This document shows, one piece after another, positions 30,001-39,000 of a stretch of DNA of 64,000 nt. This DNA is from Escherichia coli. Its GTDB lineage: Bacteria; Pseudomonadota; Gammaproteobacteria; Enterobacterales; Enterobacteriaceae. Within the stretch, counting starts at the first letter, position 1. Each line of letters opens with the position of its first letter. The position numbers were made by a program. The stretch lies in the NCBI RefSeq assembly GCF_041886205.1, contig NZ_CP169029.1, one strand, 5' to 3'.

Positions 30001-33000
30001 GATAAAGTCGTCTCTCTGATCGTGCCTCGTGGCGATGGCGCAATCCTCACCGCAACGCAGAACGGTTATGGTAAACGTACCGCAGTGGCGGAATACCCAA
30101 CCAAGTCGCGTGCGACGAAAGGGGTTATCTCCATCAAGGTTACCGAACGTAACGGTTTAGTGGTTGGCGCGGTACAGGTAGATGACTGCGACCAGATCAT
30201 GATGATCACCGATGCCGGTACGCTGGTACGTACTCGCGTTTCAGAAATCAGCATCGTGGGCCGTAACACCCAGGGCGTGATCCTCATCCGTACTGCGGAA
30301 GATGAAAACGTAGTGGGTCTGCAACGTGTTGCTGAACCGGTTGACGAGGAAGATCTCGATACCATCGACGGCAGTGCCGCGGAAGGGGACGATGAAATCG
30401 CTCCGGAAGTGGACGTTGACGACGAGCCAGAAGAAGAATAATTTTACTTCTTCATGCCAAAAGGGAGCTATCTCCCTTGTTTGAATTGAAAAGTCCAGGC
30501 TGCAAAGTCTGGGCTTTTGTCGTATTAGGGCACGGTAAAGTTTGGCTGTGCCCGTAAAAAATGGCTGGCTATACACAAGGAATGTGGCAATGAGTGGTGA
30601 AAAAAAGGCGAAAGGCTGGCGGTTCTATGGTCTTGTAGGTTTTGGCGCAATAGTACTGCTTTCCGCTGGCGTCTGGGCGTTGCAATATGCTGGCAGTGGG
30701 CCAGAAAAAACGTTGTCGCCGCTGGTGGTGCACAACAATCTGCAAATCGATCTCAATGAGCCGGACCTCTTTCTCGACAGCGACTCTCTGAGCCAGCTTC
30801 CCAAAGATCTCCTCACCATTCCGTTTCTCCACGATGTTCTGAGTGAAGATTTCGTTTTCTATTATCAGAATCATGCCGATCGTCTGGGCATTGAAGGCAG
30901 CATTCGTCGCATTGTCTATGAACACGATCTCACGCTGAAAGATAAACTCTTTTCGTCACTCTTAGATCAGCCCGCGCAGGCTGCGCTATGGCACGATAAA
31001 CAAGGCCATCTTTCACATTACATGGTGCTGATCCAGCGCAGTGGTTTAAGCAAACTGCTGGAGCCATTGTTGTTTGCCGCTACCAGCGACAGCCAGTTAA
31101 GCAAAACGGAAATCAGTAGCATCAAGATAAATAGTGAAACTATTCCTGTTTATCAGTTGCGCTATAACGGCAATAACGCCCTGATGTTCGCGACATATCA
31201 GGACAAGATGCTGGTGTTTTCCAGCACGGATATGCTGTTTAAAGATGATCAGCAGGATACCGAAGCCACGGCGATCGCAAGTGATTTGTTGAGCGGCAAA
31301 AAACGCTGGCAAGCCAGCTTTGGCCTGGAAGAGCGTGCTGCCGAAAAAACGCCAGTACGCCAGCGCATCGTGGTCAGCGCCAGGTTGCTGGGTTTTGGCT
31401 ACCAGCGGTTAATGCCTTCTTTTGCTGGCGTACGCTTCGAAATGGGTAACGACGGCTGGCACAGTTTTGTGGCGTTAAATGATGAATCCGCCAGCGTAGA
31501 TGCCAGTTTCGATTTTACGCCGGTCTGGAACAGTATGCCTGCCGGGGCCAGCTTCTGTGTGGCGGTGCCGTATTCACACGGTATTGCCGAAGAGATGCTT
31601 TCGCACATCAGCCAGGAAAACGACAAGCTGAATGGGGCGTTAGACGGTGCCGCGGGGCTGTGCTGGTATGAAGACTCAAAATTGCAAACCCCGCTGTTTG
31701 TCGGCCAGTTTGATGGCACTGCCGAACAGGCGCAATTGCCAGGGAAACTGTTTACGCAAAATATTGGTGCGCACGAAAGCAAAGCGCCAGAAGGTGTTTT
31801 GCCGGTAAGCCAGACTCAGCAGGGCGAAGCGCAAATCTGGCGTCGCGAAGTGAGTTCCCGATACGGTCAGTATCCGAAAGCCCAGGCGGCGCAAACCGAT
31901 CAATTAATGTCGGATTATTTTTTCCGTGTGTCGCTGGCGATGCAAAACAAAACGCTGCTTTTCTCCCTCGATGACACGCTGGTTAATAACGCCCTGCAAA
32001 CACTGAATAAAAACCGCCCGGCAATGGTGGATGTAATACCCACTGATGGCATCGTTCCGCTCTATATCAATCCACAAGGCGTGGCGAAACTGCTGCGTAA
32101 CGAAACGTTGACCAGTCTGCCGAAGAATCTCGAACCGGTTTTTTATAACGCCGCACAAACTTTATTAATGCCGAAGCTGGACGCTTTATCTCAACAACCG
32201 CGTTATGTCATGAAGCTGGCCCAGATGGAACCCGGTGTCGCCTGGCAGTGGCTACCCATAACCTGGCAGCCGCTATGAGACACGGGCTGCTGGCGCTGAT
32301 TTGCTGGCTGTGTTGTGTTGTTGCCCATAGCGAAATGCTGAATGTCGAACAATCCGGGCTGTTTCGCGCCTGGTTTGTACGCATTGCACAAGAACAGCTC
32401 CGCCAGGGGCCAAGTCCACGCTGGTATCAGCAGGATTGTGCGGGCCTGGTGCGATTTGCGGCGAACGAGACGCTGAAAGTTCACGACAGTAAATGGCTAA
32501 AAAGTAACGGTTTCTCTAGCCAGTATTTGCCGCCAGAGATGACGCTAACACCTGAACAGCGTCAACTGGCGCAAAACTGGAATCAGGGGAACGGGAAAAA
32601 CGGCCCCTACGTGACCGCGATTAATTTGATTCAGTACAACAGCCAGTTTATTGGCCAGGACATAAACCAGGCGCTGCCTGGCGATATGATTTTTTTCGAT
32701 CAGGGCGATGCCCAGCACTTAATGGTCTGGATGGGGCGTTACGTCATCTACCACACCGGAAGCGCCACGAAAACTGACAACGGAATGCGCGCAGTCAGTC
32801 TGCAACAACTTATGACATGGAAGGACACCCGATGGATACCCAACGATTCCAATCCCAATTTCATTGGCATTTATCGTTTAAATTTTCTGGCGCGATAGCA
32901 GCGTGCTTGTCCCTGTCTCTTGTGGGAACAGGGCTTGCTAATGCTGATGATTCGCTTCCTTCCAGTAACTATGCGCCGCCCGCCGGGGGAACATTCTTTT

Positions 33001-36000: not shown

Positions 36001-39000
36001 ACAATCTTGATGCGTTAGTCGATGAACCGTGGGGTGGGGTGATCAACACCGGTAGCCGTCTGATCCCGCTCAGTCTCGCCTGGCGTTCGCTTGCCGATCA
36101 TCAAAGTGCCGCCGCTAACGACATTCGTCAGATGATTCAGGATAACCGTCTGCGGCTGATGCAACTGGCGGGGCCCGGAGCGCGCTTTACCTGGTGGGGT
36201 GAAGATGGCAATGGTGACGCTTTCCTTACGGCATGGGCATGGTACGCCGACTGGCAGGCCAGCCAGGCGCTCGGCGTAACGCAGCAACCGGAATACTGGC
36301 AACATATGCTCGACAGTTATGCCGAGCAGGCAGATAACATGCCGTTATTGCATCGCGCGCTGGTGCTGGCGTGGGCACAGGAGATGAATCTACCGTGCAA
36401 AACGTTGTTGAAAGGGGTGGATGAAGCTATCGCCCGGCGCGGAACTAAAACTGAAGATTTCTCTGAGGAAGACACCAGCGATATCAATGACAGCCTGATC
36501 CTCGATACACCGGAATCTCCACTGGCAGATGCGGTGGCAAACGTCTTAACCATGACGTTGCTGAAAAAAGCGCAGTTGAAGTCCACGGTGATGCCACAGG
36601 TTCAGCAATATGCGTGGGATAAAGCGGCAAACAGCAATCAGCCGCTGGCGCACACGGTTGTGCTGCTCAATAGCGGGGGTGACGCTACCCAGGCGGCCGC
36701 TATTTTAAGTGGTTTGACCGCTGAGCAATCCACTATTGAGCGCGCGCTGGCCATGAACTGGCTGGCGAAATATATGGCGACAATGCCTCCAGTTGTGTTG
36801 CCTGCTCCTGCGGGCGCATGGGCCAAACATAAGTTAACTGGAGGGGGCGAATACTGGCGTTGGGTTGGTCAGGGTGTGCCGGACATTCTCTCTTTTGGTG
36901 ACGAATTATCGCCGCAAAATGTGCAGGTCCGCTGGCGTGAACCGGCAAAAACGGCTCAACAAAGTAACATTCCGGTGACCGTTGAACGCCAGTTGTATCG
37001 GCTTATCCCCGGTGAAGAAGAGATGAGCTTTACTCTGCAGCCGGTGACCAGTAATGAGATTGACAGCGATGCGCTGTATCTCGATGAAATTACGCTTACC
37101 AGCGAGCAGGATGCAGTTCTGCGCTACGGTCAGGTGGAAGTCCCGCTCCCGCCGGGAGCCGACGTTGAGCGCACAACATGGGGCATTTCGGTCAATAAAC
37201 CCAACGCCGCGAAACAGCAGGGGCAATTGCTGGAAAAAGCGCGAAATGAAATAGGCGAACTGGCCTATATGGTGCCGGTGAAAGAACTGACGGGAACGGT
37301 CACTTTCCGCCATTTGCTGCGCTTCTCGCAAAAAGGGCAATTCGTTCTACCTCCTGCTCGTTATGTGCGTTCCTATGCACCTGCACAGCAAAGTGTTGCG
37401 GCAGGGAGTGAATGGACCGGGATGCAGGTGAAATAAGTGAACTGGCGCAGAATCGTCTGGCTATTGGCGTTGGTTACTCTGCCAACGCTTGCGGAGGAGA
37501 CGCCGTTACAACTGGTGCTGCGCGGTGCGCAGCACGATCAACTGTATCAGCTGTCGTCATCAGGCGTGACCAAAGCCTCGACATTACCTGACACGCTCAC
37601 CACGCCGTTAGGGAGTTTGTGGAAACTGTATGTTTACGCCTGGCTGGAGGATACCCATCAACCGGAGCAGCCCTACCAGTGTCGCGGAAACTCCCCGGAA
37701 GAGGTTTATTGTTGTCAGGCTGGGGAGAGCATAACGCGCGATACCGCGCTGGTACGTTCCTGTGGGCTCTATTTTGCGCCGCAGCGGTTGCATATTGGCG
37801 CAGATGTGTGGGGGCAATACTGGCAACAGCGTCAGGCACCTGCGTGGTTAGCGTCTCTTACTACGCTGAAGCCAGAAACCTCGGTAACGGTTAAATCGCT
37901 GCTTGATTCATTAGCGACGTTACCTGCGCAAAACAAAGCTCAGGAAGTCTTACTGGATGTGGTGCTGGACGAGGCGAAAATCGGTGTCGCATCCATGCTC
38001 GGTAGTCGGGTACGGGTGAAAACCTGGAGCTGGTTTGCCGATGATAAACAGGAAATCCGTCAGGGTGGTTTTGCCGGCTGGTTAACCGATGGTACACCGC
38101 TGTGGGTGACTGGCAGTGGCACCAGCAAAACGGTACTGACCCGTTATGCGACGGTGCTTAATCGGGTTTTGCCAGTGCCGACACAAGTTGCCAGTGGGCA
38201 ATGTGTAGAGGTGGAGCTATTTGCCCGCTATCCGCTGAAGAAAATCACAGCGGAAAAGAGTACGACGGCAGTAAAACCCGGCGTACTTAATGGGCGCTAT
38301 CGTGTGACGTTCGCCAATGGTAACCACATTACGTTTGTCAGCCACGGTGAGACGACCTTACTGAGCGAAAAGGGCAAACTGAAATTGCAGTCGCATCTCG
38401 ATCGTGAAGAGTATGTTGCCAGAGTTCTTGATCGCGAGGCGAAAAGTACGCCACCTGAGGCAGCGAAAGCCATGACCGTGGCGATACGCACTTTTTTACA
38501 GCAAAACGCCAATCGGGAAGGCGATTGCCTGACCATCCCTGACAGCAGCGCCACGCAGCGTGTTTCTGCTTCGCCAGCGACCACGGGGGCGCGAACGATG
38601 ACCGCCTGGACGCAGGATCTCATCTATGCGGGCGATCCGGTTCATTATCACGGCAGTCGCGCTACCGAAGGGACGCTTTCCTGGCGGCAAGCCATGGCCC
38701 AGGCGGGGCAGGGAGAGCGTTACGACCAGATACTCGCGTTTGCTTATCCCGACAACAGCCTTAGCCGCTGGGGAGCTCCACGCTCAACCTGCCAGTTATT
38801 ACCCAAAGCGAAAGCCTGGCTGGCGAAAAAAATGCCGCAGTGGCGGCGTATATTACAAGGCGAGACGGGGTACAACGAACCAGACGTGTTTGCGGTCTGT
38901 CGTTTAGTCTCAGGTTTCCCCTATACCGATCGGCAGCAGAAACGGCTGTTTATTCGTAACTTCTTTACGCTTCAGGATCGGCTGGATTTAACCCATGAGT

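Follow-up and report, generated by a model that had tools for sequence, protein, structure and literature searches.

A degenerate thioester site in YfaS, a probable MagD-type alpha-2-macroglobulin of Escherichia coli

Two classes of bacterial alpha-2-macroglobulin (A2M) have been described, and Escherichia coli carries both, the second often without the CxEQ thioester motif (PMC3328433, PMC5764988). The chemistry of this motif underlies thioester formation (PMC5764988, PMC3735191), and the thioester pocket of bacterial A2Ms comprises two tyrosines of the TED (Y1183 and Y1185 in ECAM) together with a Met-Tyr pair of the C-terminal macroglobulin domain (CTMG) (PMC4498604). Type II A2Ms, by contrast, have been defined by the absence of the thioester (PMC5764988). 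Specifically, MagD of Pseudomonas aeruginosa (PA4489, encoded in magABCDEF) has neither a CxEQ motif nor any cysteine and is insensitive to methylamine (PMC3735191). It is a periplasmic protein held at the inner membrane through MagB, which anchors and stabilises it; its bait, ANRSERG (aa 847-853), is cleaved by chymotrypsin, trypsin and papain, and it retains tobacco etch virus (TEV) protease non-covalently after cleavage of an engineered bait (PMC5764988). Here, we compare these systems with yfaS, which lies in a stretch of 64,000 nucleotides of E. coli DNA (assembly GCF_041886205.1, contig NZ_CP169029.1), hereafter the window, and which an initial annotation had singled out as an A2M gene devoid of a thioester motif.

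The gene and the sites that carry the main finding are as follows.

yfaS, 32832-37436 (+): thioester-less type II (MagD-type) bacterial A2M, an open reading frame (ORF) of 1534 residues plus stop, intact in the window strain
Degenerate thioester site EPWGGVIN, residues 1065-1072, 36024-36047 (+): placed by MAFFT alignment to YPYGCLEQ of YfhM
S1514-Y1515, 37371-37376 (+): counterpart, by alignment, of the Met-Tyr pair in the thioester pocket of type I A2Ms

A scripted motif search for C.EQ returned nothing in frame in the 1534-residue translation, in keeping with the initial annotation. Across all six frames of 32701-37500 the sole C.EQ is a CTEQ in another forward frame, in the N-terminal part of the gene; this was considered as a hidden or frameshifted motif and rejected, as a stop lies five codons before it and the thioester domain is distant. 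Neither the six frames nor the comparison with K-12 yielded a relevant motif that a corrected sequence or translation could restore. To locate the homologous site, 70 full-length YfaS homologs (at least 54% identical) were aligned together with E. coli YfhM from MG1655, the A2M encoded beside pbpC. In this MAFFT alignment YfhM 1183-YPYGCLEQ-1190 pairs with YfaS 1065-EPWGGVIN-1072, so that GVIN stands in place of CLEQ: the cysteine is replaced by G1069, the glutamate by I1071 and the glutamine by N1072. With neither Cys nor Gln at the site, a beta-cysteinyl-gamma-glutamyl thioester cannot form, and covalent capture through such a bond, which the initial annotation had likewise denied to this protein, is on these residues predicted to be impossible.

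The surrounding pocket has changed as well. ECAM Y1183 corresponds to E1065, Y1185 to W1067 and the pocket methionine to S1514, while the tyrosine is kept as Y1515, the last two being paired through the alignment of VESMYVP with YVRSYAP. A summary count gives two of the four pocket residues as replaced; listed position by position, three change (E1065, W1067 and S1514). The EPWGGVIN stretch is the same in K-12, and EP[WYF]GGV[IV]N is conserved across the enteric clade, in Escherichia, Superficieibacter, Serratia and Yersinia, which excludes a sequencing error. The conservation indicates that the thioester-less GGV[IV]N state of enteric YfaS is old and stably maintained. That YfaS lacks a thioester is real and correct, and it has been known since 2004: a second E. 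coli A2M without CxEQ was described by Budd et al. 2004, as related in PMC3328433 and PMC5764988. What can usefully be added for annotation is the exact degenerate site at residues 1065-1072 together with the altered pocket residues.

The family around YfaS puts this loss into a different light. YfaS residues 850-1534 were searched against 1.84 billion representative proteins, which gave 3695 matches at E<=1e-3, of which 115 reached E<=1e-30. Among the 67 representatives that align across the site, 56 have CxEQ, most commonly as YPYGCVEQ, and the remainder comprise GxEQ (3), SxEQ (3), TxEQ (1) and other states (4). Three CxEQ proteins whose surroundings were checked (P0071, P0122 and P0132) are located in mag-type operons, as are the thioester-less P0139 and P0125, and a further CxEQ protein, P0134, stands alone; the operon look-up found no record for P0123 and was uninformative for P0176, which lies on a short contig. 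When rooted on YfhM, a neighbour-joining tree shows the enteric GGV[IV]N clade as sister to a Pseudomonas clade, within which the cysteine has been lost several times, to glycine, to serine and once by a shift, the P. fluorescens group being uniformly [YH]PYGGVEQ. Some Pseudomonas lineages have given up the Cys alone (GGVEQ or SVEQ). As such, the CxEQ majority, which includes members in mag-type operons, argues that loss of the thioester is derived and recurrent. The absence of CxEQ is found in YfaS as a class feature, yet it does not define the sequence and operon family; equating type II with a missing thioester fits MagD and YfaS, not the family as a whole. With good confidence, then, we read these sequences as a mag-type ('type II') family that is not defined by thioester absence and in which enteric YfaS would be the most degenerate form.

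The census suggests that the split between type I, with a thioester, and type II, with none, is too simple, and it could guide comparative biochemistry of protease trapping in its covalent and non-covalent forms. If the above reading of the family is true, orthologs with and without the thioester in the same operon context offer a means to test how non-covalent trapping replaced covalent capture. Separately, intact YPYGCVEQ A2M genes were observed in mag-type operons at L003/L004 9001-13545 (P. citronellolis), L006 341-4966 and L009 3566-8200, at odds with the usual definition of type II A2Ms.

The loss of the thioester residues has left the architecture of the protein in place, as the following features indicate.

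MG2 macroglobulin domain, residues 344-440, 33861-34151 (+): Pfam PF01835, E=1.8e-26
Bait region, residues 841-874, 35352-35453 (+): from alignment to 29 distant representatives and AlphaFold2 (AF2) confidence (pLDDT)
MagD-equivalent bait TNRSERR, residues 851-857, 35382-35402 (+): counterpart of MagD ANRSERG
TED homolog, residues about 1051-1314, 35982-36773 (+): 12 predicted helices, alpha/alpha-toroid-like, AF2 fragment positions 202-465
C-terminal MG domain (CTMG/bMG10), residues about 1330-1534, 36819-37433 (+): Pfam bMG10, E=3e-06, AF2 fragment positions 481-684

Pfam matches to YfaS comprise MG2 (1.8e-26), A2M_BRD (9.1e-18), A2M (8.8e-14) and bMG10 (3e-06), and a scan against NCBIfam returned no family; RefSeq names the product 'alpha-2-macroglobulin family protein'. 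The MG2 stretch is the part that matches complement C5, CD109 and A2M in sequence searches of the PDB, where single-sequence phmmer gave weak C5 matches over MG2 and did not reach ECAM at E<=1e-3. An ECAM match by a first profile (A1) was discounted as circular, since that profile contained YfhM; the type II-only profile that replaced it (A2) matches ECAM (E=5.5e-13) and Sa-A2M (7.8e-11), with one best stretch that spans the thioester neighbourhood.

In the AF2 model of residues 850-1534 (mean pLDDT 80.5) the bait segment is disordered, beta domains of MG type are present, and a domain of 12 helices precedes a beta domain at the C-terminus; G1069 sits in a loop immediately ahead of a helix. 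A Foldseek search of the PDB with this model ranks native ECAM first (5a42, E=3.7e-23, TMq 0.55), followed by Sa-A2M (4u48, 1.2e-22); TMq is 0.53-0.55 for native ECAM and Sa-A2M as against 0.34-0.35 for protease-activated ECAM. C5, C3, A2ML1, CD109 and TEP1 were also recovered, all at E<1e-16. At the level of the predicted fold, YfaS is thus a member of the A2M and thioester-containing protein superfamily, and the model suggests that the fold of the TED persists, arranged in a native-like manner but devoid of thioester chemistry.

In the bait region, residues 850-875 have pLDDT below 50, and in the alignment to the 29 distant representatives the 13-15 residues upstream of a conserved motif (841-853 in YfaS) are hypervariable. 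The motif itself, ERxxKxxERPRR[DE]xxDTAxW, follows the bait and persists in relatives with as little as 28% overall identity. In the Enterobacteria/Pseudomonas clade the entropy of the stretch 841-870 is 0.47, below the protein average of 0.98. The idea that the whole bait is unusually conserved was entertained and weakened: in the distant representatives conservation is confined to the ERPRR motif, the N-terminal side of the loop being hypervariable.

The start of the protein and its few cysteines bear on how it would be exported.

Predicted Sec signal peptide, residues 1-38 (MDTQRF...GLANA|DD), 32832-32945 (+): from the AxA site, the Shine-Dalgarno sequence and homolog N-termini
Cys25 codon, 32904-32906 (+): inside the predicted signal peptide, in its hydrophobic core
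Cys78 codon TGT, 33063-33065 (+): rare strain-specific R78C substitution
Cys1189 codon, 36396-36398 (+): within the TED, 120 residues from the thioester site

A GAAGGA Shine-Dalgarno sequence stands 6 nt upstream of ATG 32832, and directly after A-N-A|DD comes a mature N-terminus, DDxLPxSxY, that is conserved and aligned with the post-signal N-termini of homologs. From this, we infer cleavage of the signal peptide after ANA. RefSeq/PGAP records start yfaS at GTG 32922 (1504 aa; cluster P0003), which would drop the signal peptide and C25; the K-12 annotation b4500 uses the start that matches ATG 32832, and a mechanical ORF list places it five codons earlier, at ATG 32817. ATG 32832 is probably the best start, and the PGAP start looks wrong, probably removing the signal peptide, which is again of use for annotation. 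As a side observation, the 15-residue N-terminal extension of YfaS (window 32832-32898) overlaps the 3' end of yfaT in another frame, and homologs from Serratia (P0061) and Pseudomonas (P0100, P0107 and P0110) share it in the form MDTRRxQxQLxxHLS. This recurrence could mark either a conserved N-region of YfaS or merely the conserved C-terminus of the overlapping MagC/YfaT.

The three cysteines that the initial annotation had counted are indeed present in the window protein, at C25 (AIAACLSLS), C78 (EAPGCDYRR) and C1189 (MNLPCKTLL). The number is nevertheless strain-specific because C78 is a rare allele: position 78 is Arg in 69 of the 70 homologs and in K-12, and of 5426 E. coli genomes only 6 contain the exact 37-mer with the Cys78 TGT. 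The column of C25 holds Cys in 12/70 homologs; that of C1189 is Val in 60/70 and Cys in 3, with Cys limited to Escherichia among the homologs examined. Judged by these columns, none of the three is a conserved cysteine, a further point for annotation. YfhM also has three cysteines in total, C9 in the signal peptide, C18 in the lipobox and C1187 in the thioester, and this equal scarcity makes a low count a trait of bacterial A2Ms, in which only the position of a cysteine is informative.

The genes around yfaS complete the comparison with the Mag system.

yfaA, 30590-32278 (+): DUF2138, MagB-like; Pfam E=1.8e-288, hydropathy maximum at residues 12-31
yfaT, 32275-32898 (+): DUF1175/MagC family with a Sec signal peptide; Pfam PF06672, E=1.1e-57
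yfaQ, 37437-39086 (+): tandem DUF2300 plus SpoIID-like segment, MagE-like, with a Sec signal peptide; Pfam
yfaP, 39091-39867 (+): DUF2135/YfaP_C, MagF-like, with a Sec signal peptide; Pfam

The genes are tightly packed: yfaA and yfaT overlap by 4 nt and yfaT and yfaS by 67 nt, yfaS and yfaQ adjoin without a gap, and yfaQ and yfaP are 4 nt apart. All products have a predicted signal peptide or, in YfaA, an N-terminal hydrophobic helix; in a promoter and terminator scan of the operon no signal exceeded the expectation from shuffled sequence. A six-gene operon of P. citronellolis, that of P0071, encodes YfaP_C, DUF2138, MagC, A2M, DUF2300 and YfaP_C proteins in this order. YfaA is 47% identical to its DUF2138 protein, YfaT 71% to its MagC-family protein and YfaQ 52% to its homolog; for YfaP, tblastn gives 52% identity with the 3' (MagF-like) YfaP_C gene and 42% with the 5' (MagA-like) one. 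PF06672, formerly DUF1175, is called MagC in a newer Pfam release, and by analogy with MagB, YfaA is likely the inner-membrane anchor of the complex. A second YfaP_C copy was not found by tblastn in the 64-kb window, and no MagA-like gene lies between gyrA and yfaA (30442-30589). The yfaA-yfaT-yfaS-yfaQ-yfaP cluster is flanked by gyrA upstream and rcsC downstream. In the window strain rcsC directly follows yfaP after a gap of about 275 bp (window 39868-40141); in K-12 the atoDAEB genes adjoin yfaP, and the ato locus is therefore absent from the window strain or located elsewhere in it.

YfaS keeps the macroglobulin scaffold, the disordered bait loop, a TED-like helical domain, the C-terminal MG domain and the operon partners. 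By orthology with the Mag system, we consider it probable that yfaS encodes an intact type II (MagD-type) A2M which would act as a periplasmic, complex-bound, non-covalent protease trap. YfaS would be exported by Sec, and the 38-residue signal peptide, with Cys25, would be removed after ANA. Subsequently, the protein would be retained at the inner membrane as part of a complex that also comprises YfaA as the MagB-like anchor, YfaT (MagC-like), YfaQ (MagE-like) and YfaP (MagF-like). A protease intruding into the periplasm would then cut the bait around TNRSERR, upon which the two YfaS fragments may stay together and hold the protease non-covalently, by steric trapping. The initial annotation had proposed a non-covalent or structural role similar to that of MagD. 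The likeness is apt, given the 54-56% identity, the colinear operon and the bait motif, but 'structural' undersells MagD, which still traps protease non-covalently after bait cleavage (PMC5764988).

Several observations weigh against this reading. The literature searched yielded nothing relevant on the function of YfaS itself, the known biochemistry being that of MagD only, and trapping by MagD was observed with the engineered TEV bait and incomplete cleavage (PMC5764988). The missing MagA-like gene means that the composition of the E. coli complex may differ. Between species the protein varies most at residues of about 1051-1400 (35982-37030), where column entropy is 1.1-2.0, the mean being 0.98; such variability of the TED fits relaxed constraint on its present role. 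Finally, a nonsense allele, W1368*, has no known consequence in K-12.

The main rival, which we regard as unlikely, holds that YfaS is not primarily a protease trap and serves, as scaffold or sensor, an envelope complex associated with peptidoglycan; bait cleavage would then be regulated maturation through a dedicated protease, and the TED, without its thioester, would offer a binding surface. It draws on the cell-wall-related signatures of the partners, namely the weak NlpC/P60 match of YfaT in Pfam and the SpoIID-like segment of YfaQ, and on the processing of P. aeruginosa MagD from 165 to 100 kDa in vivo, which depends on MagB (PMC5764988). The conservation after the bait, both of the ERxxKxxERPRR[DE]xxDTAxW motif and of 841-870 at large within the Enterobacteria/Pseudomonas clade, could likewise speak for this rival. 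Against it, the 13-15 residues before that motif are hypervariable in distant relatives, as expected of a bait, the MagD bait is cut by all three proteases named above with TEV protease retained, and YfaS keeps the whole A2M architecture in a native-like arrangement, all of which is more in line with a trap.

Two further alternatives concern the membrane attachment and the integrity of the gene. Anchoring of YfaS in the membrane through lipidation of Cys25, as in ECAM, is very unlikely: IAAC (residues 22-25) does fit a loose lipobox, [LVI][ASTVI][GAS]C, and YfhM uses an LAGC lipobox, but the scarcity of Cys in this column among the homologs, the hydrophobic core that runs 13 residues past the Cys to a canonical signal-peptidase I site, A-N-A|DD, before the conserved mature N-terminus, and the example of MagD, which lacks any Cys (PMC3735191) and is tethered by MagB (PMC5764988), indicate that YfaS is probably not a lipoprotein. 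That yfaS is decaying in E. coli, its thioester loss being mere loss of function, is extremely unlikely. The idea takes its appeal from K-12 MG1655, where yfaS is an annotated pseudogene (b4500, 4605 nt, NC_000913.3 2329798-2334402), and from the many truncated or fused singleton variants among the E. coli matches. W1368* is the sole nonsense change of the K-12 gene, codon 1368 in the window (36933-36935) being TGG for Trp, and 100 nt and 29 codons separate the window allele from that of K-12, with a dN/dS of 0.116, which falls to about 0.07 in the TED, the lowest value along the protein. Within E. coli yfaS is under purifying selection, and even with the nonsense allele of K-12 these ratios speak against simple decay. 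The full-length cluster P0003 moreover has 40,950 member sequences, at least 80% of an 8-kb query around yfaS is covered in 5355 of 5426 complete E. coli genomes, and GGV[IV]N is common to Escherichia, Superficieibacter, Serratia and Yersinia, which points to an old and stably maintained state. A trap of the MagD type remains our preferred reading of YfaS.

The same 8-kb query has a chromosomal match in 5395/5426 of the complete genomes, and the genes annotated under it are yfaA, yfaT, an alpha-2-macroglobulin family protein, yfaQ and yfaP. Besides the full-length cluster, E. coli records include ORFs of 1359-1422 aa that join A2M with DUF2300/SpoIID domains (P0037, P0044, P0057 and P0059) and that appear to be YfaS-YfaQ fusions, as well as many shortened YfaS variants of 959-1380 aa. 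The fused and shortened variants probably reflect frameshifts, deletions or errors of assembly.

Set against the known systems, YfaS shares its superfamily and domain order (MG, bait, TED and C-terminal MG) with the type I proteins YfhM (ECAM) and Sa-A2M, at 19% identity to YfhM over the C-terminal 685 residues. YfhM has CLEQ at 1187-1190, a Tyr-Tyr-Met-Tyr pocket, an LAGC lipobox at residue 18 and a place beside pbpC, none of which is found in YfaS; the adjacency to pbpC (PBP1c), a type I trait, gives way to yfaA, yfaT, yfaQ, yfaP, gyrA and rcsC as neighbours. In the C3/C4/C5 family, complement C5 is the member without a thioester, and it likewise keeps a TED-like domain (Foldseek E about 3e-22, TMq 0.59, among the top matches). 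C5 initiates the membrane attack complex (MAC); it is eukaryotic and 11-12% identical to YfaS, and it serves as an analogy for retention of the TED without a thioester and not as a functional relative.

The mag-type proteins are far closer. Members that bear CxEQ (P0071, P0122 and P0132) lie in the same operon, are 37-56% identical to YfaS and retain YPYG-CVEQ, and P0071 and P0101 keep the Met-Tyr pocket pair; such proteins can presumably still form the thioester. The P. citronellolis operon is colinear with yfaA-T-S-Q-P, the five E. coli proteins being 47-71% identical to their counterparts, and the E. coli operon, with five genes, lacks the MagA-like first gene of the six-gene mag operon. 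Close Pseudomonas relatives without the Cys keep YPYG-GVEQ, whereas YfaS has also lost the Glu, the Gln, one pocket Tyr and the pocket Met. A search for P. aeruginosa MagD by way of the Cys-free homolog P0086 returned only P. fluorescens-group proteins, all [YH]PYGGVEQ, and the likeness to MagD is drawn from published descriptions (PMC3735191, PMC5764988) and Pseudomonas homologs and not from a direct YfaS-MagD alignment. Over 97-99% of the length, YfaS shares 54-56% identity with Pseudomonas MagD-type proteins. Taken together, YfaS and MagD are alike in having a Sec signal peptide instead of a conserved lipobox and in lacking CxEQ, the bait TNRSERR is the counterpart of ANRSERG, and the MagD system has the same operon partners in the same order as the E. 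coli yfa cluster.

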